A stretch of DNA of 64,000 nt from Phycisphaerae bacterium (GCA_030428945.1 JAUIEC010000001.1:156438-220437); one strand, 5' to 3'. Positions 20,371 to 32,782 are shown, numbered from the stretch's first letter. Numbers and translations are program-made. Notes: generated by a model from the sequence alone, not told the origin.

Positions 20371-22932
20371 TCACTCTTTCGCTGCGCCGGCTGGTTTGTG
20401 CAGGGCCTGCCAGCGGGCGTGCTGCGCTGGCTGGTCGGTGGCCTGATAGAGGTCGACCAGGCCGCCGATGCCGCGCTGGGTGTAGGGGTGCTCGTCGCCG
20501 ACCTGGTCGCGGAGAGTTTTGACGCCGGTCAGCAGCAGCGGTTCGGCCTCGGCGGGGCGGCCGACGGTCAGCAGGGCGGTTCCGAGCCGGCACTGGTAGT
20601 CGCCGAGGCGCCAGTGGTTTTCGGGCAGTGATTCGGTCGCGCCGGCCAGGGCTTCGGTGAAGTGTTCGAGGGCCAGTTCGGTTTCGCCGCGGGCCAGCAG
20701 GATTTCGCCGACGAGGCTGAGCGTCAGCATGGTTTCCTCGTGGGAGAGGCCGAGGTCGGCCCGGCGGGCGGCGAGGGTCTGGCGGGCGAGGGTCTCGGCC
20801 TCATCCAGTTCGCGGACCAGCAGCAGGCTGGACGCGAGGTTGTGTCGGCTGGTCAGGGTGTCCGGGTGGTTCTCGCCGAGGACCCGTTCGCGGATTTCGA
20901 GCAGGGAGCGCATCAGCGCGATCGCTTCGTCCTGTCGGCCGAGGTTCTTCAGCACGAGTGCCAGGTTGTTGCGGACGCTGAGCGTGTGCGGGTGTTCGTC
21001 GCCGAAGCGTTCGGCCAGGCCGGCCTCGGTCTGTCGCAGCAGCGGTTCGGCCTCGGCGGACTTGCCGATTTCCCACAGCAGCAGCGCCAGGCTGTTGCGG
21101 GTTCCGAGTGTCAGCAGGGCGTCGGGCTGGGTTTCCTCGAGGCCGGCCAGGGTTTCGCGCAGCAGGGCCTCGGCTTCGTCAAGTCTGCCGAGCGACTGCA
21201 GCAGGTTGCCGAGGCTGCTGCGGGCGGCGCGGGTGTTGCGGTGGTTCGGGCCGAGCAGTCGCTGGCGGATGGTCAGCAGGCGGCGTTTCCAGTACTCGGC
21301 GTCGTTCAGCTTGCCGCGCTGCTGCAGGGCGCTGGCGTAGTTGTTCATCGTGATCTGGGTGTGGTCGTGGTCCTCGCCGAGCACCTCGACCCGCGTGTCG
21401 AGCGCCTGGCGGAGCGTCTCTTCGGCCTGTTCCAGCTTGCCGAGTCCGAGGAACGCGGTGCCGAGGGTGTGCTGCAGGCCCGCCCGGATCTCGGGGTTTT
21501 CGGCGAACTCGGTCTCGGCATGCGGGGCGGCCCAGGTCAGCATCTCCGAGATCCGCACATCGCCGCCTTCGCCCTGCGTCGGGTCGGCCGAGGCGAGGAT
21601 CTTCCGCAGGAACTCGTTGATCGCCGTGACCTTCTCGGCCTCTTCCTCGGCCAGCGTCTGTGCCCGGCGGGTTTCCTGGAGGCGCGTGTCGGCCAGGTCG
21701 AGGGCCTCGATCGCCCGGTTGCGGTCCGCGTCGGCCTGGCGGCGGAGCGTTTCCGCCTGGCGGTAGAGGACGCCCATCCATGCGCCGAACGCGAGCACCA
21801 GGCCGAACAGCACGCCGGCGGCCGCGAAGGGGGCCTTGTGACGGGCGACCAGTTTCCGCAACTGGTAGCCGAAGGTGTGCGGTGTGGCGAGGATCGGTTC
21901 GTTGCCGAGGTAGCGTTCGATGTCCTCGTTCATGGCGGCCGCGCTCTGGTAGCGGCGGGCGGGGTCTTTCTCGATCGCCTTGAGGATGATCGCTTCGAGG
22001 TCGGCGTCGATGCGCGGGTTGAGGGTGCGGGGGCGGACGGGGTCCTGTTCGCAGATGACGCGGAGGGCGTCGAGCAGTTGCGTGCGGTCGACTTCGTAGG
22101 GCAGCCGCAGCGTGAGCAGTTGGAAGAGGATGATGCCGAGGGCGTAGACGTCGGTCCGCAGGTCGATCTCGTCGGGGTTGCCGCGGGCCTGCTCGGGGCT
22201 CATGTAGTGCAGGGTGCCCTGGATCCGGCCGACCTCGGTGACGATGGTGTGTTCGTCGCGTTCGTCGTCGGTGATCCGGGACAGGCCGAAGTCGAGGATC
22301 TTGGGGTTTCCGGTCGGGGTGACGATGATGTTGGACGGTTTCAGGTCGCGGTGGATCACGCCGCGCTGATGGGCGTAGTGGACGGCGTCGCAGATCCGGC
22401 GGAAGAGGTCGAGGCGGGCCTGCAGGGTCGGTTCGCCCCGGGCGGCGAAGCGCCCGAGCTGGACGCCCTCGACCAGTTCCATCACGAAGTACTGCAGGTT
22501 GCTGTCGCTGCCGTCCGCGGCGTGGATCGCGGCGATCGCGGGGTGCTTCAGGCGGGCGAGGGCCTCGGCCTCGCGCTGAAAGAGGCGCAGGTGGTACTCG
22601 TCGAGCGTGCGGCCGTGGAAGACCTTGACGGCCACGCGTCGGCGGGGCTGTTCCTGTTCGGCCTCGTAGACGATGCCGCTGCCGCCGCGTCCGATTTCGC
22701 GGAGGACGCGGTAGCCGGCCAGGTGCGGAATGGCCTGGGCGGGTGCGGTGCGGACGGCGGGTTCGGCCAGTCGGGCGATGCTGCCGCTGACCTGGAGGTT
22801 GGCGGAGACGTCGTCGAACTGCTGGCGGCAGTCGGGGCAGGCGTCGAGGTGGCTGCGGAGCTGGAGCGAGAGCGACTCGGTCAGGTCTTCGCAGGCGAGG
22901 GCCTCAAGTTGTTCGAGGTCCGGACACGGCAC
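20371..22932 (-). CDS. Ser/Thr protein kinase with an N-terminal zf-HC2 anti-sigma-like zinc finger, a TM segment and a C-terminal TPR array
   Basis: HLDACPDC (H-x3-C-x2-C). Kinase subdomains GxGxxG (GRGGSG), VAVK, HRDLKPSN, DFG, SPE. Hydrophobic helix about aa 380-400. More than 8 TPR-like repeats. Confidence 0.9.
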   Translation of the reverse strand: MPCPDLEQLEALACEDLTESLSLQLRSHLDACPDCRQQFDDVSANLQVSGSIARLAEPAVRTAPAQAIPHLAGYRVLREIGRGGSGIVYEAEQEQPRRRVAVKVFHGRTLDEYHLRLFQREAEALARLKHPAIAAIHAADGSDSNLQYFVMELVEGVQLGRFAARGEPTLQARLDLFRRICDAVHYAHQRGVIHRDLKPSNIIVTPTGNPKILDFGLSRITDDERDEHTIVTEVGRIQGTLHYMSPEQARGNPDEIDLRTDVYALGIILFQLLTLRLPYEVDRTQLLDALRVICEQDPVRPRTLNPRIDADLEAIILKAIEKDPARRYQSAAAMNEDIERYLGNEPILATPHTFGYQLRKLVARHKAPFAAAGVLFGLVLAFGAWMGVLYRQAETLRRQADADRNRAIEALDLADTRLQETRRAQTLAEEEAEKVTAINEFLRKILASADPTQGEGGDVRISEMLTWAAPHAETEFAENPEIRAGLQHTLGTAFLGLGKLEQAEETLRQALDTRVEVLGEDHDHTQITMNNYASALQQRGKLNDAEYWKRRLLTIRQRLLGPNHRNTRAARSSLGNLLQSLGRLDEAEALLRETLAGLEETQPDALLTLGTRNSLALLLWEIGKSAEAEPLLRQTEAGLAERFGDEHPHTLSVRNNLALVLKNLGRQDEAIALMRSLLEIRERVLGENHPDTLTSRHNLASSLLLVRELDEAETLARQTLAARRADLGLSHEETMLTLSLVGEILLARGETELALEHFTEALAGATESLPENHWRLGDYQCRLGTALLTVGRPAEAEPLLLTGVKTLRDQVGDEHPYTQRGIGGLVDLYQATDQPAQHARWQALHKPAGAAKE

Positions 22933-22942
22933 GCGGGCATCC

Positions 22943-23542
22943 TCACAGGGCGATCACTTCCATGTCGGTCTGCAGTTGCCGCACGCGTTTCAGCACGCGG
23001 TGCTTGGCGGTATAGACGGCGGCCCGCGACATGCCGAGCTGATCGGCGGCCTGGTCGGCGGTGTGTCCTTCGCAGACGGTCAGGGCGAAGGCCGCGTAGG
23101 TCTGGGCGTTGACCTCGGTCTGCACGCGGGTCAGGCAGCGGTTCAGCAGGTTCCGCTGCCACTCCTCGTCGAAGCAGCGGGTCGCCTCCTGCTCGTCCGG
23201 CAGCGAGGCCCAGAAGGCGGTGTCCGCGCTGACCTGCTGGTCGTTGCCGCTGCGGCGTCGCCGGCGGCGCAGATTGAGCGCCTTGCGGTAGGCGATGCCG
23301 AACAGCCAGGAGCTCAGGCGGCCTTTCTCGCGCTCGTACTTGCCGCGGCGGAGGGCCTCGGCGAAGTCGAGCAGCGTCTCCTGGGCGCAGTCCTCGGCCT
23401 CGGCCTCGGTCAGGCCGATCCGGCGGGCAAAGCGCACCAGCGGGTCCTGGAACCGTCCGGTAAAGCGGTTCCAGGCTTCCTGGTTGGTGAACTCGCGCAG
23501 GCCGAGCAACAGCGTCGAACTGGTAACCCACTCGTTGGTCAA
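22943..23542 (-). CDS. ECF-type sigma-70 family RNA polymerase sigma factor
   Basis: Region 2-like FARRIGLTEAEAEDCAQETLL and a region 4 HTH (LGMSRAAVYTAKHRVLKRV). About 200 aa. Co-directional with, and 10 bp from, the kinase gene. Confidence 0.85.
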   Translation of the reverse strand: MTNEWVTSSTLLLGLREFTNQEAWNRFTGRFQDPLVRFARRIGLTEAEAEDCAQETLLDFAEALRRGKYEREKGRLSSWLFGIAYRKALNLRRRRRRSGNDQQVSADTAFWASLPDEQEATRCFDEEWQRNLLNRCLTRVQTEVNAQTYAAFALTVCEGHTADQAADQLGMSRAAVYTAKHRVLKRVRQLQTDMEVIAL

Positions 23543-23701: not shown

Positions 23702-26056
23702 GTGACGCCGATTGTCGGCGGGAGGATGCCAATGCCGTCAGCGAGTCGCCCCGCCAACCAGGCCGACTTCACCTTCGAGATCGATCAGCCGGACACGCCC
23801 GCGCTGCGGGTGACCGGCTTCCGCGGCCAGGCCGCGCTGAGCACGCTGTTCCACGTGCAGGTCGACCTGGCGTCGGATGAACCGGCGCTCGACAAGGCCG
23901 CGCTGCTCGGGCAGGCCTGCCGGCTGACGCTCCGGTCGCCGCGCGGCGATCGGTTCATCTCGGGCATCGTCCGCGCGCTGGCCCGCACCGGGCAGGGGTC
24001 GCGGGTGACGCACTACGCGGCCGAGATCGTGCCGGTGCACTGGTACCTGACCCGCCGGCAGCAGTCGCGGATTCTGCAGAGTCACCTCTGCACGGACATG
24101 AGTGTCCCGGGCGTGATCCAGCACGTGCTGGAAAAGGCCGGCATTCCGGACACGCACTTCCGCTTCGCGTTGCAGGGCACCTATCCGCAGCGTGAGTGCG
24201 TCGTGCAGTACCGCGAGACGGACATGAACTTCATCGCGCGGCTGATGGAGATCGAAGGCCTGCACTTCTTCTTCGAGCACGAGGCGGACCGGCATGTGCT
24301 GGTGATCGCCGACGGCGACGTCGCGCACGTGCCGGGCGAGGGGATCGAGGAGATCGCCTTTCGCGCGCCGACCGGCCTGGTGCCGGCCGAGACCTGCGCG
24401 TTCGAACTGGAGGATCGGCGGGCGATCGAGGTCGACGCGGTTTCGCTGGACGATTTCGACTTCAAGAATCCGGCCCAGCAGTTGCGGGCCCGGCTGGAAG
24501 GTCCGGACGCGCCGGCCCTCGAGACGGTCGACTATCCCGGCTGCTACGTGACCCGCGGCGATGGCGAGCGCTACGCCCGCGTGCGACTGGAGGCCGAGCA
24601 GGTCGGGCGGCACGTCGTCCGCCTGCGGGCCAATGTCCGCGGGCTGCGCCCGGGCTCGACCTTTCACCTGGTCGATCATCCGGCCGCCGAGTGCAACCGC
24701 GAGTACCTGGTGATCGCGGCCGAGGAGCAGGCCGCCCAGCCACAGAGCGTGACGAACGAGGCGGGCGCGGCCGAGGCCCCGCAGTACCGGGTGCTGCTGA
24801 CGCTGATTCCGGTGGAGGTGCCGTACCGGGCGCCGCTGGACACGCCGGTCCCGCGGGTGGCGGGCAGCCAGACGGCGCTGGTGGTCGGTCCGCCGGGCGA
24901 GGAGATCTGGCCGGACGAGTACGGACGGGTCAAGGTGCAGTTCCACTGGGACCAGGCCGGGACGTACAACGAGGAGAGTTCGGCCTGGATCCGGGTCAGC
25001 CAGGGGTGGGCCGGCGGGCGTTACGGGATGTTCTTCCTGCCGCGGGTCGGGCAGGAGGTGGTGGTCGATTTCCTGGAGGCGAACCCGGATCGGCCGCTGA
25101 TCACGGGCAGCGTCTACAACAAGGACAACATGCCGCCGGTGCAGTTGCCGGAGGACAAGACCTGCAGCACGATCAAGTCGCGCAGCACGGTCGGCGGGGG
25201 CGGGGCGAACGAACTGCGGTTCGACGATCGCAAGGACGAGGAACTGCTGTTCCTGCACGCCCAGAAGAACCTTCACCTGCGGGCGCTGAACGACGCGATC
25301 GAGACGATCGGGGCGAACCGGCACTCGCACGTGTCGGGCGACGTGATCAGCGAGGTCTCGAAGAACGTCTCGACCGCGATCGAACTGGATCGCTGCGAGC
25401 AGATCGGCGGGAACGCCTCGCTGTCGATCACGGGTGACCAGATCGAGGTGGTGTCCGGCAATCAATCGGTCGATGTCGGCGGCGGGCAGACCTTGACCTG
25501 CGGCGGCACGGTCGTGGTCGAATCGAGCACGGGCATCACGCTGAAGGTCGGCGGCAACTTCCTGACGATCGACCCGAGCGGGATCTACCTGATGGGTACG
25601 GTCGTGCACGTCAACGGCGCCGGCGCGGCTCTGAACGGCACGTCGCTCGAAGCGCTCGAGACCGGCGAGGCGGCCGTGGCGGCCACGACCGAGCCGGGCA
25701 CGGACGTCACCTACCAGGCCGATCCGGATACGCCGGGACAGATCGAGGCGACGCTGCAGCAGGTCGCCGACGCGGACGAGGACCAGGCCGAAGACGAGGC
25801 GAGCTGGGTCGAGATCGAACTGGTGGACCAGAACGGGCTGCCGGTGGCCGGCGAGGCCTGGGAACTGATTTCGCCGAGCGGGAAGACCTACAGCGGCAGC
25901 CTGGACGCCAACGGCCGGTCGCACGTGGCCGTCGATCAGCCGGGGACCTGCCAGGTCAGCTTCCCGCGACTCGACCGGCGGGCCTGGTCGCGGACAGGCG
26001 GAGAGCAGGCGGCCGCGACGGCCGCGGGTGGCGCGACGCAGGAGGGCTCGGCATGA
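23702..26056 (+). CDS. vgrG: Type VI secretion system spike protein VgrG
   Basis: gp5 OB-fold hallmark RVGQEVVVDFLEANPDRPLITGSVYN. gp27-like N-terminal domain and a beta-helical repeat region (GNASLSITGDQIEVVSGNQSVDVGGGQ...). About 90-aa C-terminal extension after an acidic linker. The start may be M9 or M11 (23726 or 23732). Confidence 0.9.
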   Translation: MTPIVGGRMPMPSASRPANQADFTFEIDQPDTPALRVTGFRGQAALSTLFHVQVDLASDEPALDKAALLGQACRLTLRSPRGDRFISGIVRALARTGQGSRVTHYAAEIVPVHWYLTRRQQSRILQSHLCTDMSVPGVIQHVLEKAGIPDTHFRFALQGTYPQRECVVQYRETDMNFIARLMEIEGLHFFFEHEADRHVLVIADGDVAHVPGEGIEEIAFRAPTGLVPAETCAFELEDRRAIEVDAVSLDDFDFKNPAQQLRARLEGPDAPALETVDYPGCYVTRGDGERYARVRLEAEQVGRHVVRLRANVRGLRPGSTFHLVDHPAAECNREYLVIAAEEQAAQPQSVTNEAGAAEAPQYRVLLTLIPVEVPYRAPLDTPVPRVAGSQTALVVGPPGEEIWPDEYGRVKVQFHWDQAGTYNEESSAWIRVSQGWAGGRYGMFFLPRVGQEVVVDFLEANPDRPLITGSVYNKDNMPPVQLPEDKTCSTIKSRSTVGGGGANELRFDDRKDEELLFLHAQKNLHLRALNDAIETIGANRHSHVSGDVISEVSKNVSTAIELDRCEQIGGNASLSITGDQIEVVSGNQSVDVGGGQTLTCGGTVVVESSTGITLKVGGNFLTIDPSGIYLMGTVVHVNGAGAALNGTSLEALETGEAAVAATTEPGTDVTYQADPDTPGQIEATLQQVADADEDQAEDEASWVEIELVDQNGLPVAGEAWELISPSGKTYSGSLDANGRSHVAVDQPGTCQVSFPRLDRRAWSRTGGEQAAATAAGGATQEGSA

Positions 26057-26955
26057 GCAACCCGACCGACGATTCGTTTTCCGTGCGACTGAGCCAGGCG
26101 GCGGGGGGCGGGCAGGCGCCGGCCGATCCGCGGGAGGAGATTGGCGAACTGCCGAACCGCAGGTCGACGGAGCCGGCTGCGCAGCCGCAGGAGGCCGCGT
26201 TCAATCCGCTGGACTCGTTCGCGGCCCGGCTGGAGTCGCACCTGGACCAGGCGGCGCCGCAGCAGCAGGAACCGGCGGCGCCGCGCGTCGCGCCGGACGC
26301 GGTGATCCGGGCCGAGGCGTGCGGGGCCGGTGCGCACGAGGTGGCCCGCGGCGCGTGCCTGGCGGGGATCGCGCGGCAGGTCGGGCACGACTGGGAGACG
26401 ATCTGGAACGACCCGGCCAACGCGCCGGTGCGCGAGGCGCGTCAGGACCCGAACCTGCTGCTGGCGGGTGACCGGCTGCACATTCCGCCGCAGGAGGCCA
26501 AGCAGGAGTCGGTGGCGACGGAGGCCCGGCATCGGTTCGTGCTGCACAGCGCGCCGGTGCGGCTGGTGCTGCAGTTGAAGGACGAGGCCGGCAAGCCGCG
26601 GGCGAACCTGGCGTACACGCTGGAGGTCGACGGTGCGGCGCGGGAGGGCTTCACCGATCCGAGCGGGACGCTGCGCGAGTTCGTGCCGGCCGAAGCCCGC
26701 GAGGCGCTGCTGACGCTGACGGAATCGGGCGAGGCCTATCCGTTGCGGCTGGGGGCCCTGCAGACGGCCGAGGCGTGTGGCGGCGTGCAGGCGCGGCTGA
26801 ACAACCTGGGTTTCCACTGTGGTCCGCCGAGCGGGCAGTGGGACGAGCGGACGCGGCTGGCGCTGAAGGCATTCCAGGGTCGCGAGGGCCTGCCGGCGCA
26901 CGGAGAACTGGACGAGGCGACGCTGCAGCGCCTGCGGGCGACGCACAGGAGTTAG
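26053..26955 (+). CDS. LysM-like plus peptidoglycan-binding (PGBD_1-like) domain protein, no signal peptide
   Basis: LysM-like HEVARGACLAGIARQVGHDWETIWNDPAN...LLLAGDRLHIP. PG-binding-like GVQARLNNLGFHCGPPSGQWDERTRLALKAFQGREGLPAHGELDEATLQRL. ATGA overlap with the vgrG stop. Confidence 0.7.
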   Translation: MSNPTDDSFSVRLSQAAGGGQAPADPREEIGELPNRRSTEPAAQPQEAAFNPLDSFAARLESHLDQAAPQQQEPAAPRVAPDAVIRAEACGAGAHEVARGACLAGIARQVGHDWETIWNDPANAPVREARQDPNLLLAGDRLHIPPQEAKQESVATEARHRFVLHSAPVRLVLQLKDEAGKPRANLAYTLEVDGAAREGFTDPSGTLREFVPAEAREALLTLTESGEAYPLRLGALQTAEACGGVQARLNNLGFHCGPPSGQWDERTRLALKAFQGREGLPAHGELDEATLQRLRATHRS

Positions 26956-27014
26956 TGAGCAGGTAAGCGGGTAGGCAGGTGTGCTGCGGGGCCTTTTCGG
27001 GCGTTGGATTGGAG

Positions 27015-28028
27015 ATGGCGGTGTCAACGACGACTTCGAGTGATGCGATCTTTGCGGACTGGATGCAGAAGGCGCTGACGTTTCCGGATCCGGGGCATGG
27101 TCACCGGCACAAGCCGATCAACATCTCGTGCTGGATCGCGCTGCATGCCGAGCAACTGGTGGTGACGGTGCACACGGTCTGTTACTCGCAGTATTTCAAC
27201 GACACGCATCGCCAGGGCTGGACCAGCGGGATCAAGTCGTGCTGGGACGGCGAGTTCCTGATCGAGGCCGACGCGACGCCGGGCGGCGGGCACGATGTGC
27301 CGCTGTCGGTGCCGGGCACCGAGACGCCGGCCGTGCTGCGGCCGCAGACCTGGCAGGTTCCGATCGTGTTCGATCCGCGGTTCTACAAGAGCGGCGATCC
27401 GAATGCGCCGGCCAACGCCGACTGTTCGCCGCCGATTCATCGGATCGTCGACCCGGCCGTCGAGCGCGGTGACACGAACAACTGGTGGGGCAAGGACAGG
27501 AATCCGCAGGACACGATGGGGCACATGGCCGCCCACGAGTTCGGGCATTACATCGGCTGCGGGGACGAGTACGGGCTGCACGAGGCGGCCTTCCAGAGCG
27601 TGGTCGGTCGGGCGCCGCGTCCGGACGAGCGGATGGTCGGCAAGGACGGCGTCCCGAACGGGCTGTACAGCACGCACGACAGCATCATGGGGTTGTACAC
27701 GGATCAGTTTCCGAAGCGGCGGCACGCCGAGATGATCGTGGACTGGCTGAACGAGACATACGTGCCGCGGCAGAGCCTGGTCGAGCGCTTCATCCTGCGG
27801 ACCTATGACGAACTGGGCGGGGATCCGATCGGGGAGAACGACTGGTCGTGGTACACGGTCCAGGAGGGCGAGTGGCTGTCGCACATCGCCGAGCGGCACG
27901 GCTACACCTGGGATCAGCTCTACAACTACGACCCGGTCGGCGGCGAGCCGAACCGCATGCTGCTGAGCAGCGGCGACCCGAACCTGATCTATCCCGGCGA
28001 ACAGATTCGCGTTCCGAACGGAGGCTGA
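27015..28028 (+). CDS. HExxH zinc metallopeptidase-like protein with a C-terminal LysM domain (candidate T6SS effector)
   Basis: HEFGHYIGCGDEYG (HExxH plus a downstream acidic GDEY). C-terminal LysM YTVQEGEWLSHIAERHGYTWDQLYNYD...GDPNLIYPGEQIRVP. No signal peptide. GGAG located before the ATG at 27015. Confidence 0.7.
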   Translation: MAVSTTTSSDAIFADWMQKALTFPDPGHGHRHKPINISCWIALHAEQLVVTVHTVCYSQYFNDTHRQGWTSGIKSCWDGEFLIEADATPGGGHDVPLSVPGTETPAVLRPQTWQVPIVFDPRFYKSGDPNAPANADCSPPIHRIVDPAVERGDTNNWWGKDRNPQDTMGHMAAHEFGHYIGCGDEYGLHEAAFQSVVGRAPRPDERMVGKDGVPNGLYSTHDSIMGLYTDQFPKRRHAEMIVDWLNETYVPRQSLVERFILRTYDELGGDPIGENDWSWYTVQEGEWLSHIAERHGYTWDQLYNYDPVGGEPNRMLLSSGDPNLIYPGEQIRVPNGG

Positions 28029-28030
28029 AC

Positions 28031-28858
28031 GTGCCGGCTGCCGCCCGCGTACTGGACACGACTTCGCACGGTACACCGCTGATGCCCGGACCCGGCAGCA
28101 GTGACGTGCTGATCGGCATGCTGCCGGCCTGGCGGGCGCTGCCGGCGGGAGTCGGCGCGGGGCTCGAATCGGCCTCGTCGCAGATGCAGTCGCTGATGTC
28201 GTCGCCGAGCCTGACGCCCGTGGATGCGACCGCCACGCTGGTGCAGGTGCAGACCGGGCTGGCGCAGTCGGCGGCGGCGGCCACCGCGGACGGAAACATG
28301 TCGGCCCTGCCGAGCACGGCCTCGGCGATGGTCAGCCTGAACGCGACCAACGCGGCGCTGACGGCCACCTACCTGGCGGCCGCGGCGGTGCCGGGCGGCG
28401 CGGCGGCCGCGGGCGTGGCGTATGCGCAGGGTCTGCAGGCGGCGGCCGCGGCAACCGTCGGGGCGGCGTTCCAGGCGATCGCGGGGACGACCGACCTGCA
28501 CAACTGTCCGATTCCCTGTCCGATCCCGCCGCACGGACCGGGGGTGGTGACGCAGGCGAGCACGAGCGTGTTCGTCAACAACCTGCCGGCCGTGCGGCAG
28601 GCGGACAACGTGGTCGAGGCCTGCGGCGGTTCGAACGCGATCGCGATGGGGGCGCCGACCGTGTTCATCGGGGACCAGGGCGGCAGCAGTTCGCCGGCGG
28701 GGCAGAGCGGGTCCTCGGTGACGGGGGCGGTGGCGAGTTTCGTGGCGACGGTCGCGGACGTGATCGCGGCGGCGACGGTGATCATGCAGAACGAGGCGGC
28801 GGCGACGAGCGGTGCGGCGTTGTGCGAGGTCTGCGACGATTCGGGGGCGGGCACATGA
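28031..28858 (+). CDS. PAAR-domain protein with an Ala/Ser-rich insertion
   Basis: GTG start gives MPAAARVLDTTSHGTPLMPGPGSSDVLIGMLPAWRA (PAAR motif 1). The C-terminal HNCPIPCPIPPHG...NLPAVRQADNVVEACGGSNAIAMGAPTVFIG is PAAR motif 2. GGAGG RBS located 5 nt upstream inside the preceding gene. Confidence 0.8.
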   Translation: MPAAARVLDTTSHGTPLMPGPGSSDVLIGMLPAWRALPAGVGAGLESASSQMQSLMSSPSLTPVDATATLVQVQTGLAQSAAAATADGNMSALPSTASAMVSLNATNAALTATYLAAAAVPGGAAAAGVAYAQGLQAAAAATVGAAFQAIAGTTDLHNCPIPCPIPPHGPGVVTQASTSVFVNNLPAVRQADNVVEACGGSNAIAMGAPTVFIGDQGGSSSPAGQSGSSVTGAVASFVATVADVIAAATVIMQNEAAATSGAALCEVCDDSGAGT

Positions 28859-29241
28859 AGCCGGTGTTCACGCTGCGCGACGCGCACCTGGAGGCGTTTG
28901 CCGCGGCGGCGCGGGAGAGCTTCGAGGATCGCATGCTGGCGCACGTCCGCCTGGCGTTTCGCGCGCGGCATGACGAACTGGGCGCGGTCGAGTCCCGCCG
29001 CTGGGTCCGCAGCGGGATCGAGCGGGCGGCCGACTACGGGATCACGGTCGAACGGGACGTCAGTCGCTTCATCCGGCTGATGTTTCAACTGGGTGAGAAC
29101 TTCGACCGCGGGCAGGCCCGGGCGATGCTGGCGCGGCGCGACGTGCCGGCCGCGCTGCGGTTGAACCGGGTGCTGACGATGGCGGTCAGTTCGGGGGCCC
29201 TGCCGGCCGGGACGGTGCGGGCGGTGGAGGCGGAGTCGTGA
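28855..29241 (+). CDS. Hypothetical 128-aa cytoplasmic protein in the vgrG operon
   Basis: ACATGA stop/start overlap with the PAAR gene. Coding-like bias. No signal peptide or recognisable motif. Confidence 0.55.
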   Translation: MKPVFTLRDAHLEAFAAAARESFEDRMLAHVRLAFRARHDELGAVESRRWVRSGIERAADYGITVERDVSRFIRLMFQLGENFDRGQARAMLARRDVPAALRLNRVLTMAVSSGALPAGTVRAVEAES

Positions 29242-30425
29242 GGCTGACAAAGCTGACGCTGCACTACCTGCTCTGCGTGCAGTCGCAGGAGGGGGCGACG
29301 GTCGGGGGCATCAACGTGTCGGATGACGAGATCCGGCTGGAGCTGGGCAGCCTGGTGGTTGCGCGGGCGAACATGCTGCCGGGTCAGACGCTGACCGACT
29401 TCAGCCAGAGCGTGTTCGAGTTCGAGCACGCCCCGGAGTTCCGGCTGTACGAGGAGGACGTCGAGTACGTCGGGGACGGCGACGACCTGCTGGGGGCCTG
29501 GACGGTCGAGACGGTCAAGGGCGTGCACGTGGCGCACTTCGCGCAGAGCGGGGCCTACTACATGCTGCAGTACGAGGTCGAGCCGCCGCCGGATCCGACC
29601 AGCCCCTCGGAGCGGTGCGGCGCGCCGCCGGGCGAGACGCTCGCGTACGTGACCTGCGGGCACGACGTGCCGGAGTCGCAGCGGTTCGACGAGTACCGCG
29701 AGATCATCGAATCGCTCGGGGTGTTCCTTGAGGACGGCTACAACCTGATCGGGCTGCGGTGCCTGGACTACGAGACGCGCGAGATCGTCGAGAACACCTG
29801 GAACGCCTGGAACGACACGCTGGCGGTCGTCTGGCTGGACGCGGCCGGGACCAAGCGGGTGGTCGAGTACCAGGGCACCTGCGATCCGGGCAAGCACTCC
29901 AAGACCGCGCACGAGGATGGCGAGGATGCCAATCCGAACGGGCTGGCGCACCTCTGTGACGGGCAGTGGGAGTACGAGTGCGGCTATCACCACGGCAGCT
30001 ATCCGTGCCTGGTGCAGAAAGAGGACGTGACGGTCTGGCGGAGCCAGTTCGGCGATGACGGCTGGGCGAACAACACCTTCGAGGAAGGCGAGCAGACCGA
30101 CACGGGCATCTTCGGGATCAACATTCACGCCTCGAAGGACAACTCGTCGGGCGTCTACAACTGGTCGGCCGGCTGCCAGGTGTTCCGCAGTTCGAAGGGC
30201 GCGGGCACGCGTTACGCCGAGGTGATGGGCTCGGGGACCAAGGGCGATTCCGAGCACGGCGGATACGTCGGCGAGCATTTCGAGACGCACGACGTGATCT
30301 ACTACACGGTCGTGACGGCCCGGGAGAAGGGCACCGAAGAGGACAACGTGCCGTGCGCGTGCGAGGCCGGGGACGGTGAGGTCGGGGCCGGGAGCGTGGC
30401 GTGTCCACAGGAGGGTGCCTCGTGA
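29238..30425 (+). CDS. Hypothetical 395-aa protein with a YkuD (L,D-transpeptidase fold)-like Cys/His motif (candidate effector)
   Basis: GTGA overlap with the preceding gene. The segment GIFGINIHAS...GVYNWSAGCQVFRS resembles the YkuD HG...SHGCIR active-site region. No signal peptide. Confidence 0.5.
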   Translation: MRLTKLTLHYLLCVQSQEGATVGGINVSDDEIRLELGSLVVARANMLPGQTLTDFSQSVFEFEHAPEFRLYEEDVEYVGDGDDLLGAWTVETVKGVHVAHFAQSGAYYMLQYEVEPPPDPTSPSERCGAPPGETLAYVTCGHDVPESQRFDEYREIIESLGVFLEDGYNLIGLRCLDYETREIVENTWNAWNDTLAVVWLDAAGTKRVVEYQGTCDPGKHSKTAHEDGEDANPNGLAHLCDGQWEYECGYHHGSYPCLVQKEDVTVWRSQFGDDGWANNTFEEGEQTDTGIFGINIHASKDNSSGVYNWSAGCQVFRSSKGAGTRYAEVMGSGTKGDSEHGGYVGEHFETHDVIYYTVVTAREKGTEEDNVPCACEAGDGEVGAGSVACPQEGAS

Positions 30426-30955
30426 TTGCCGAGCGCGTGCTCGAGCCGCTGCAGCGGGGGCTGCGGGCCGGTGACCAGGCGGGGCTGCACTGGTACGCGG
30501 TGGTCGACGCCGCGCAGCCGCTGGATGCGATCCGGCGGGTGCGGGTGGCGCGGCGCAAGAACCGGACGCTGTACCAGGGACGGCTCGGGGCCCTGGCACA
30601 CGCGGCGGCGCCGTACCTGGTGGAACTGGACCTGCAGGACAACCTGACGGCCTGGCTGCTGGCGCACGGGAGCCAGCACTGGGGGATCCTGCTGCAGTCA
30701 TCGGCCGACTTCGAGACGGTTCGACAGCACCTGCGGCGGTTCCTGGTGGTCAGCGATCCGGAGGGTCGTCGGCAGCGGTTCCGGTTCTACGATCCGCGGA
30801 TCCTGCGTGCGTTCCTGCCGGTCTGCACGGGCGAAGAGGCGGCCAGGTTCTTCGGTCCGGTCAAGCGGTACTACGCGGTGGGGCGCGACCTGCTCGACTG
30901 GGAGCGCTTCTCGGCCGTCTCGCGCGGCGTGCATCGGGAGCAGGTAAGCAGGTAA
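30401..30955 (+). CDS. DUF4123-like protein (T6SS effector adaptor Tap/Tec family)
   Basis: LHWYAVVDAAQPLDAIRRV...RTLYQGRLGALAHAAAPYLVELD matches the DUF4123 LYALxDGA...L(Y/F)xG...APxLV pattern. An alternative GTG start at 30422 overlaps the upstream stop. The last codons and the TAA stop are supplied by the heptamer tract. Confidence 0.55.
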   Translation: MSTGGCLVIAERVLEPLQRGLRAGDQAGLHWYAVVDAAQPLDAIRRVRVARRKNRTLYQGRLGALAHAAAPYLVELDLQDNLTAWLLAHGSQHWGILLQSSADFETVRQHLRRFLVVSDPEGRRQRFRFYDPRILRAFLPVCTGEEAARFFGPVKRYYAVGRDLLDWERFSAVSRGVHREQVSR

Positions 30956-30996
30956 GCAGGTGAGCACGTAAGCACGTAGGCAAGCAGCAAGTGACC
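30939..30996 (+). repeat. GCAAGTRA-type heptamer tract (family A) overlapping the end of the DUF4123 gene
   Basis: gagcaggtaagcaggtaagcaggtgagcacgtaagcacgtaggcaagcagcaagtga. Confidence 0.8.
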
Positions 30997-31213: not shown

Positions 31214-32782
31214 ATGCACATGTCACTGTTCATTGTTCTGGTCGGGGTGATCCTGGCGATTCTGCTGATTGGTTCGGTGTTCACGCACTTCCGGGCGCTG
31301 CCGATTCGGATCGCGGGCATCGTCGGCGGCGTGCTGGTGATCCTGCTGAGCGTCTGGACCGGTTCGTTCCGGTACGTGAGCGAAGACGGGATCGGGGTCG
31401 TGGTCAAGAATTTCGGGACGAAGATGCCGGCCGGGCAGATCATCGCGACCAACGGCGAGACCGGTCCGCAGGCGAAGGTGCTTGGCCCGGGCTGGCACCC
31501 GTGGTTGTGGCCGTTCGTCTACGACATCGACATTGAGCCGGTGGTCGAGATCGAGGAGGGGGAGATCGGTCTGCTGACGACGACGGACGGCAAGCCGCTG
31601 CCGCCGGGCGAGATCTACGCGCCGGAGTGGGATGACAAGAAGCAGATGCTGGACGCCGACTATTTCCTGGGCACGGGCAACGGGTACAAGGGTCCGCAGG
31701 CGTCGGTGCTGTCGCCGGGCAAGTACCGGATCAATCCGAAGCTGTACCGGGTCGAGAAGCAGCCGGTGCTGAACATCGAGAAGGCGACCGTCGGCGTGGT
31801 CAAGTCGAACGTCGGCGAGGCGCCGCCGCAGACCGAGGGTGAGCCGCTGGTGGATCGCGGCAAGCGCGGGATCTGGAGCGAGCCGTACCTGCCGCAGAAG
31901 CTGTACCTGAACCCGAACGCGTTCGAGGTGACGGTGATTTCGACGGCCGAGCGGACGGTGCGGTACACGAAGGAGGCCTCGCTGGGCGAGGAGAGCGCGA
32001 TCACGGTGCGGTCGTCGGACGGGTTCACGTTCCCGGTGGATGTGCGGATCGAGTACCGGATCAAGCCGCAGGATGCGCCGCTGGTGGTGGCCAAGTTCGG
32101 CGATGACGGCGAGCAGTTGATGGCCCGTCTGACGTCGGCGGTGCGGGCGATCTTTCGGAACAACGCCGAATCGGTCAAGGCGCTGGACTACGTGCAGCAG
32201 CGTTCGAAGCAGGAGACGCAGTCGCTCGAGGCCCTCGCGACGGCGATGACGGCCGTGGGCGTGACGGTCACGGCCGTGCGGATCGGCGATGTCGGTGACG
32301 AAGCGACGCTCGGCCCGCTGCTGAAGACGCAGACGGACCGCGAAATCGCGATCCAGGAGCAGAAGACCTTCGACGAGCAGCAGCGGACGGCCGAGCGGAA
32401 GAAGGAACTGGCCCGGACCGAGCAGGAAGCGGAGGAGGAGAAGCGCCTGGCGACGGCGAACTACCAGGTGAAGATCGCCGAGCAGGACAAGGAGAAGCGG
32501 ATCATCAGCGCGCAGGCCGAGGCGGAGGCGATCAAGATCGAGGCCGAGGCGCAGGCGGACGCGTACAAGCTGATCGCCAGCCAGATCGGCAAGGGGAATG
32601 CGGCGCTGGTGGAACTGATGCGGATCGTGGGTGACAGCAACGTCAACATCACGCCGCGGGTGATGGTCAGCGGCGGCCCGACCGGCGGGGGCTTCGGTGC
32701 GGGGGGCGAGACGACGGCGCTGATCGGGACGATGCTGGACACGATGCTGGAGAAGAACCCGGAGACGCCGGCCGTCGAGTAG
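31214..32782 (+). CDS. SPFH / band-7 (flotillin-like) membrane protein
   Basis: Two N-terminal TM segments, an SPFH-like core (EVTVISTAERTVRYTKEASLGEESAITVRSSDGFTFPVDVRIEYRI) and a long Glu/Ala/Lys coiled coil (EAEAIKIEAEAQADAYK). Confidence 0.75.
   Translation: MHMSLFIVLVGVILAILLIGSVFTHFRALPIRIAGIVGGVLVILLSVWTGSFRYVSEDGIGVVVKNFGTKMPAGQIIATNGETGPQAKVLGPGWHPWLWPFVYDIDIEPVVEIEEGEIGLLTTTDGKPLPPGEIYAPEWDDKKQMLDADYFLGTGNGYKGPQASVLSPGKYRINPKLYRVEKQPVLNIEKATVGVVKSNVGEAPPQTEGEPLVDRGKRGIWSEPYLPQKLYLNPNAFEVTVISTAERTVRYTKEASLGEESAITVRSSDGFTFPVDVRIEYRIKPQDAPLVVAKFGDDGEQLMARLTSAVRAIFRNNAESVKALDYVQQRSKQETQSLEALATAMTAVGVTVTAVRIGDVGDEATLGPLLKTQTDREIAIQEQKTFDEQQRTAERKKELARTEQEAEEEKRLATANYQVKIAEQDKEKRIISAQAEAEAIKIEAEAQADAYKLIASQIGKGNAALVELMRIVGDSNVNITPRVMVSGGPTGGGFGAGGETTALIGTMLDTMLEKNPETPAVE

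Follow-up and report, generated by a model that had tools for sequence, protein, structure and literature searches.

What is the product of the sixth gene in a seven-gene operon that begins with a gene for VgrG, a spike protein of type VI secretion systems (T6SS), and ends with a DUF4123 adaptor gene, when this product matches nothing in Pfam, NCBIfam or, by sequence, the PDB? The question is raised by a stretch of 64,000 nucleotides from a Phycisphaerae bacterium (GCA_030428945.1, JAUIEC010000001.1:156438-220437), called the window below, in which an open reading frame (ORF) of 395 amino acids occupies positions 29238-30425 on the plus strand. An initial annotation had proposed that this ORF encodes a Tlde1-type effector with an L,D-transpeptidase fold. 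Our analysis, which is computational throughout, leads to a related answer: the protein is probably, though by no means certainly, a cargo toxin of the T6SS spike that cuts the peptide part of a rival's cell wall by means of a Cys/His domain. T6SS-delivered toxins with an L,D-peptidase fold are already known, and the principle is not new. The new part is the toxin domain, which occurs in thousands of sequence clusters, is unnamed in curated libraries and is unlinked to YkuD by sequence methods. To our knowledge, interbacterial weapons have barely been studied in Planctomycetota, for which the protein is a concrete effector candidate.

A conserved His/Ser/Cys domain of the phrog_3000 family

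The gene is real and its coordinates are right, as judged from an identical protein recorded in NCBI, from an ortholog of 394 amino acids (61% identity) with a matching start position in a Phycisphaerae metagenome-assembled genome (MAG; locus L001), and from the overlap of both gene ends with the neighboring genes. The GTG start codon, which GGAGG precedes by 8 nt, is part of a GTGA overlap with the stop of the ORF upstream, and the gene's own stop codon is overlapped by the GTG at 30422, the likely DUF4123 start, which is preceded by AGGAGG. Comparison of the window with the ortholog (synonymous divergence, dS, of about 0.87) demonstrated purifying selection on both domains of the protein. 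No N-terminal signal peptide, lipobox or transmembrane segment was found in it; residues 4-15 form a predicted beta-strand within the N-terminal domain in an AlphaFold2 (AF2) model.

The Cys/His motif that had drawn attention to this ORF comprises GIFGINIHAS (residues 290-299) and SGVYNWSAGCQVFRS (residues 304-318), and can be written as H297-x12-S310-A311-G312-C313-Q314-V315. Alignment with 211 diverse relatives shows H297 in 100%, C313 in 99% and S310 in 98.6% of the sequences, the remainder being gaps, and four further residues (H251, Q260, R268 and R174) are each conserved in at least 98%. Since the three motif residues are kept across such diverse relatives, the motif is not a chance resemblance. 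The ORF, its motif and the lack of a signal peptide were thus described correctly from the outset; the conserved domain, placed by the initial annotation in the C-terminal third, spans residues ~140-365 according to homology searches.

A profile search of 1.84 billion cluster representatives (50% identity) retrieved 4,439 proteins at E<=1e-3, 1,308 of them at E<=1e-30, and the family thus comprises at least 4,439 clusters. Its one named match is the PHROG family phrog_3000 (function unknown), whose hidden Markov model the window protein matches significantly over the conserved core (E=6.8e-27, residues 164-320). Relatives match the same model at E=1e-35 to 1e-43 and have further matches to the C-terminal portion of phrog_33083, a PHROG family labeled 'endolysin'. 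No NCBIfam model covers this domain in any of the nine family members searched. The true sequence family of the domain is this large uncurated group of the phrog_3000 type, which is shared with phages.

Predicted domains and fold

AF2 predicts two domains for the full-length protein (pLDDT 70). Residues 1-135, which belong to an N-terminal region of about 200 residues initially thought to lack any motif, form a separate C2-like beta-sandwich directly before the catalytic domain. This sandwich is present only in the two Phycisphaerae orthologs, both encoded in VgrG/PAAR operons, and probably serves as a loading domain. The acidic, Cys-containing C-terminal tail is also restricted to the two orthologs, and pLDDT falls below 50 for residues 372-395.

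In the model, the conserved domain adopts the catalytic beta-sandwich fold of YkuD, the very feature whose absence from a structure prediction had been named in advance as counting against an L,D-transpeptidase-type enzyme. The best structural match of the domain is LDT_Go (8QZG), and Tlde1a is the weakest among the YkuD-fold matches; a Foldseek search against the PDB yielded only weak C2-domain matches, for the N-terminal domain, and did not recover the YkuD-fold ones. The arrangement of the motif agrees with the predicted fold: the putative catalytic His precedes a Cys in an S-x-G-C context by 16 residues, a distance within the range of 14-19 and equal to that in Bacillus subtilis YkuD (sequence verified against 2MTZ and 1Y7M). 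As a prediction, the YkuD-like fold is well supported.

Likely substrate and phage relatives

Examination of domain architectures in the family revealed a consistent set of partners. In relatives, the domain is fused to Amidase_2 with or without LysM, to an SLT lytic transglycosylase, to CBM9, or to one to four PG_binding_1 repeats, which in Myxococcales are accompanied by a lysozyme-like region, the latter read from the sequence with no profile match. Family members also occur in crAss-like phages, where the gene sits 5' of two small ORFs followed by the large terminase gene, in Bacteroides DAC phages and in P2-like Pseudoalteromonas phages. In the annotation of one of the P2-like phages, Pseudoalteromonas phage ACA1, there are two holins and no endolysin; the phage's gp35, a 'hypothetical protein' encoded between the tail tube and tail chaperone genes (L003 21970-22590), is a family member and may be the missing endolysin. 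The wall-enzyme and wall-binding fusion partners, together with the occurrence in phages, point to peptidoglycan as the substrate of the domain.

Could the domain merely bind the wall? One crAss-like phage record labels its family member 'peptidoglycan-binding domain 1 protein', and the domain often adjoins proven catalytic domains, as a non-catalytic peptidoglycan-binding module would. On the other hand, such a module would not be expected to keep a His, a Ser and a Cys at 99-100%, ordered and spaced as in a thiol peptidase, and many family members are stand-alone proteins. We consider a pure binding function highly improbable, and the invariant triad argues for catalysis. Hydrolases with a YkuD fold are known, among them Csd6, Pgp2, Bd1075, DpaA and Tlde1a. 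Another member of this fold class, LDT_Go, attacks the L-Ala1-D-Glu2 bond (PMC10864386), and a handful of canonical YkuD domains are listed among phage lytic proteins in PhaLP (PMC8310338).

An alternative is that the delivered protein is a thiol peptidase or amidase with a substrate other than the peptidoglycan stem, either the lipoprotein-peptidoglycan link, which is cut by DpaA/LdtF, or a periplasmic or cytoplasmic protein. However, the main fusion partners (Amidase_2, SLT, LysM and PG_binding_1) are wall hydrolases and wall-binding modules, and members are common in phages that infect Bacteroidota, Pseudoalteromonas and other hosts, which have no single lipoprotein anchor in common. A substrate of this other kind is rather unlikely.

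A further architecture was seen in Hymenobacter sp. CA1UV-4 (L045 5556-8426), where a 944-amino-acid protein combines SLOG (LSDAT_prok), DUF4231 and SLATT_1 transmembrane modules with a domain of this family at the C-terminus. Such modules are typical of conflict or abortive-infection systems, and their pairing with a wall peptidase was unexpected.

Operon structure and spike delivery

The gene is the sixth of seven in a translationally coupled run with overlapping or nearly abutting ends, in the order VgrG, PG_binding_1 protein, HExxH/LysM protein, PAAR, orf139, the gene under study and DUF4123. The features of this operon are the following.

23702-26056, plus strand: VgrG, first gene of the operon (Pfam Phage_GPD, E=2.8e-75; Gp5_trimer_C, E=2.7e-27; Phage_base_V, E=3.7e-14)
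26053-26955, plus strand: 300-amino-acid protein with C-terminal PG_binding_1 (Pfam E=1.6e-12), no signal peptide; ATGA overlap with the vgrG stop; syntenic in L001
26979-28028, plus strand: 349-amino-acid protein with an HEFGH motif and C-terminal LysM (E=9.7e-6); weak M6 metalloprotease match at residues 172-200; syntenic in L001
~28031-28858, plus strand: PAAR spike-tip protein (Pfam PAAR_motif, E=1.1e-9); longest ORF from 27848, start set by the 278-amino-acid L001 ortholog
28855-29241, plus strand: orf139, ~128 amino acids from the ATG at 28855, helical, no signal peptide; L001 ortholog by phmmer (E=2.3e-19); stop overlaps the start of the next gene
29238-29642, plus strand: N-terminal domain of the candidate effector, residues 1-135, C2-like beta-sandwich
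29643-30335, plus strand: catalytic domain of the candidate effector, residues 136-366, predicted YkuD fold, phrog_3000 family (H297 at 30126-30128, S310 at 30165-30167, C313 at 30174-30176)
30336-30425, plus strand: C-terminal tail of the candidate effector, low-confidence (pLDDT <50 for residues 372-395), acidic and Cys-containing, with the stop codon
30422-30955, plus strand: DUF4123 adaptor/chaperone (Tap/Tec/Tla1-like), last gene of the operon (Pfam E=1e-29; longest ORF from 30401)

Within this vgrG operon, the candidate effector is encoded directly next to the DUF4123 adaptor, an adjacency that had been noted initially together with the reversed order, and the two genes overlap by their stop and start codons. 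The DUF4123 protein also matches the NCBIfam model Tla1 (E=1.9e-11), under the cut-off of that model. The full gene order is kept in L001, with DUF4123 last in both genomes.

The closest relative of the domain outside the Phycisphaerae lineage, among 185,579 species-representative genomes, is an 898-amino-acid protein of a Planctomycetota MAG (L004; 42% identity). It starts with a PAAR domain (Pfam E=1.2e-6; score 29.1 bits, cut-off 27) that contains NGMPAARQFD, and continues with a Gly-rich linker, a weak CHAT-like region, the domain of interest and a further C-terminal region. This PAAR fusion argues that Planctomycetota employ the domain as a toxin module delivered by the spike. The C-terminal region of the fusion protein (L004 6534-9326, JAJDCP010000165), of ~170 amino acids, has the Cys/His motifs QSYCCGQSF and GDLCQYWCGATSGHSTVF and resembles a CHAP or NlpC/P60 peptidase; the protein may be a spike toxin that has two domains for cutting the wall. 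On the opposite strand, a SUFU-domain gene is found close by.

Two other explanations for a wall enzyme in such an operon have to be weighed at this point. The first is that the protein remodels the wall of its own producer, opening the peptidoglycan for assembly or firing of the secretion machine. Wall enzymes of this kind have precedents in TagX and MltE, and the presence of a predicted YkuD-fold wall enzyme among spike genes without a detectable immunity gene would fit an enzyme that is not a weapon. However, the protein cannot reach the periplasm alone, because it lacks a signal peptide, lipobox and transmembrane segment; its gene occupies a cargo position between PAAR and the adaptor in an orphan vgrG island, not in a core cluster; and the nearest relative outside the lineage has the PAAR-fused architecture of a delivered protein. 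Action on the producer's own wall therefore appears unlikely.

The second explanation assumes a phage-derived lysis-type gene that is in the island by accident and is not a T6SS substrate, the DUF4123 protein serving another cargo. In agreement with this, most family members are stand-alone proteins of ~200 amino acids from phages and Bacteroidota genomes with no T6SS genes nearby, and the order of the adaptor gene is atypical. Arguing against it, the start and stop of the gene overlap both neighbors, synteny is kept between orthologs that have diverged to 61% identity and a dS of ~0.87, phage genes are absent from the surroundings, the additional N-terminal domain is found only in the two orthologs from VgrG/PAAR operons, and the closest relative (L004) is fused to PAAR. 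Accidental capture thus seems improbable, and delivery of the protein by the spike remains our preferred explanation.

Other genes of the island

Two more genes of the operon encode possible cargoes. The 300-amino-acid PG_binding_1 protein, in which we also observed a LysM-like stretch (26053-26955), is possibly a co-cargo, an accessory protein or an immunity protein. The 349-amino-acid protein (26979-28028), encoded between VgrG and PAAR and conserved in L001, has no signal peptide and carries HEFGHYIGCGDEYG, a zinc-peptidase-like motif; it is possibly a second cell-wall effector, of the metallopeptidase type. The conserved helical product of orf139 is a candidate chaperone or immunity protein; its PDB matches, all to de novo designed helical repeat proteins, were rejected as a composition artefact.

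On the minus strand upstream of vgrG (20371-23542), a divergent pair of genes encodes an ECF-type sigma factor (22943-23542) and an 853-amino-acid protein whose N-terminus is Cys-rich and anti-sigma-like and which also has a Ser/Thr kinase domain and TPR repeats. L001 also keeps these divergent sigma factor and Ser/Thr-kinase/TPR genes, whose products may be a pair of regulators dedicated to the island. The VgrG of L001 (3906-6776; 956 amino acids) has a C-terminal CHAP domain, whereas that of the window (784 amino acids) ends in another, unannotated extension; it seems that the toxin module of the spike itself was exchanged and the cargo genes were retained.

In L001, a 265-amino-acid gene called 3' of DUF4123 looks like an Arg-rich call in the wrong frame, and the next real genes there encode a PEP-CTERM protein and a RAYT-type transposase; therefore no downstream effector has been lost from the window. 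An imperfect tandem repeat at 30940-30992 (gcaggtaa gcaggtaa gcaggtga gcacgtaa gcacgtag gcaagcag) spans the 3' end of the DUF4123 gene and the sequence just beyond it, before an SPFH/Band-7 gene at 31214.

Points against the proposed function

A number of observations weigh against the proposal of a T6SS-delivered L,D-peptidase. Some of them concern the relation to known enzymes. The sequence similarity of the protein to YkuD or Tlde1 is not significant: a profile search of the PDB with the family was empty at E<=10, and none of 63 family members searched against Pfam at the same threshold matches YkuD (PF03734) or DUF2778. Comparison of the family profile by hhalign with a YkuD alignment of 120 sequences, shallow and of B. 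subtilis type (>=67% identity), which limits the test, was not significant either (probability 0.2%, E=0.29); the sole alignment produced, itself below significance, pairs H297 with the catalytic His of YkuD and C313 with its catalytic Cys, and hhalign against the single YkuD sequence gave nothing. The L,D-transpeptidase signature proposed initially agrees with the protein in the order of His and Cys and in their 16-residue spacing as in YkuD, but SAGCQV lacks both the second His and the Arg that belong to the canonical (S/T)HGChR. Homology to YkuD at the sequence level is not demonstrated.

Other points concern delivery. The usual order of such operons is vgrG, adaptor, effector, immunity, as in Vibrio cholerae Tap-1/TseL and Agrobacterium tumefaciens Tap-1/Tde1, whereas here the DUF4123 gene is 3' of the presumed cargo and not immediately upstream of it; the two further possible cargoes of the operon could be its client instead. 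Neither in the window nor in L001 does the operon or its immediate surroundings contain an ORF with a signal peptide, as expected for a periplasmic immunity protein, and orf139 has no Pfam, NCBIfam or meaningful PDB match. No T6SS core gene was seen in the parts of the window scanned by profile (within the first ~45 kb). Window genes for FG-GAP/ASPIC proteins, an RmlD-like reductase, a radical-SAM enzyme, thioredoxin-reductase-like, reprolysin-like, TPR and SPFH proteins and a histidine kinase were checked as core components, and none of them is a Tss gene. Finally, phmmer searches with the window proteins as queries detected no VgrG, PAAR or DUF4123 in the other 79 bacterial loci that have the domain, although such single-sequence searches may miss divergent versions and did miss the PAAR domain of L004. 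T6SS delivery is therefore an exception in the phrog_3000-type family.

Proposed mechanism and significance

In the proposed mechanism, the protein is made without a signal peptide and would be loaded on the VgrG/PAAR tip encoded just upstream, probably through its C2-like N-terminal beta-sandwich and through the DUF4123 adaptor, the product of the next gene downstream. Firing of the spike would then bring it into the periplasm of a neighboring bacterium. There the C-terminal 230 residues, predicted to fold like an L,D-transpeptidase (YkuD), would act through C313 as the nucleophile, with H297 activating and S310 positioning it: C313 would attack an L-D peptide bond of the peptidoglycan stem, forming a thioester that is resolved by water. 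The resulting activity would be that of an L,D-carboxypeptidase or endopeptidase, or possibly that of an enzyme that swaps in a D-amino acid, and either would weaken the wall.

A broader and more speculative reading, which we offer tentatively, is that the phrog_3000 domain represents a very widespread lytic class of YkuD-fold L,D-peptidases that has gone unrecognized. It would serve as the missing or an accessory endolysin of crAss-like, Bacteroides and P2-like Pseudoalteromonas phages, and would have been recruited twice by Planctomycetota, in one case as VgrG/PAAR cargo and in the other fused to PAAR, as a T6SS weapon without a conventional periplasmic immunity protein. The bond cut in this case would possibly be L-Ala-D-iGlu, the bond attacked by LDT_Go, or that of 3-3 cross-links.

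The domain family occurs in crAss-like gut phages and in many wall hydrolases. Its predicted fold and probable chemistry give a testable function to a large set of 'hypothetical' phage and bacterial proteins, and the domain may add an enzymatic class to the endolysin toolbox.

Comparison with known systems

One comparison is with canonical wall enzymes of the YkuD fold. LDT_Go, a 1,3 L,D-transpeptidase (8QZG), and the L,D-carboxypeptidases Csd6, Pgp2 and Bd1075 have no detectable sequence similarity to the window protein. These enzymes are exported by Sec and have housekeeping or cell-shape roles, and NTF2-like or peptidoglycan-binding domains are present in some of them, whereas the window protein lacks a signal peptide and is encoded beside spike genes. 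Phage members of phrog_3000 and phrog_33083 are stand-alone proteins of ~200 amino acids or are fused to amidase or SLT domains; unlike the window protein, none of them has the C2-like N-terminal domain or T6SS neighbors.

The Tox-LD-peptidase domains of polymorphic toxins, linked to the T6SS and the type II secretion system, have conserved H, S and C residues and a predicted role in hydrolysis of wall cross-links (Zhang et al. 2012; PMC3482391). RHS repeats and Imm16/Imm57 immunity proteins accompany them in that description, which covers Proteobacteria, Bacteroidetes, Firmicutes and other phyla (PMC3482391). The window protein likewise has conserved H, S and C residues and a predicted LD-peptidase fold. 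The architecture differs, as the window protein is a separate cargo without RHS or PAAR fusion and its neighbors have no Pfam match to Imm57 or Imm16. The PAAR-fused relative from L004 is polymorphic-toxin-like, as are the Tox-LD-peptidase toxins.

A close functional parallel is Tlde1a of Salmonella Typhimurium, a T6SS toxin with L,D-carboxypeptidase and exchange activities, which has a modified L,D-transpeptidase fold, including a capping subdomain, with the catalytic residues H121, S128, H129 and C131 and belongs to a group with the catalytic motif HXX14-17-(S/T)HGCh (PMC9638812). Residues H297, S310 and C313 of the window protein correspond to H121, S128 and C131 of Tlde1a. Several features differ: the His-Cys spacing (16 residues versus 10 in Tlde1a), the motif (SAGC versus SHGC, the second His being replaced by Ala), the size of the domain (~230 versus 171 amino acids) and the extra C2-like domain at the N-terminus. 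Neither the window protein nor any of the 63 relatives has a Pfam match to Tlde1 (DUF2778, PF10908, PDB 7UMA) at E<=10, and, unlike Tlde1, the gene has no adjacent Tldi1-like periplasmic immunity gene in the window or in L001. The neighbors are VgrG, PAAR and DUF4123 genes in Planctomycetota, in contrast to the enterobacterial SPI-6 cluster of Tlde1a. The protein is therefore not a member of Tlde1, since it does not match the sequence model, has another spacing and motif and is without an immunity partner, and of the initial proposal of a Tlde1-type effector the predicted fold and the effector context are retained. It would nonetheless work in the manner of Tlde1a and the Tox-LD-peptidase toxins.
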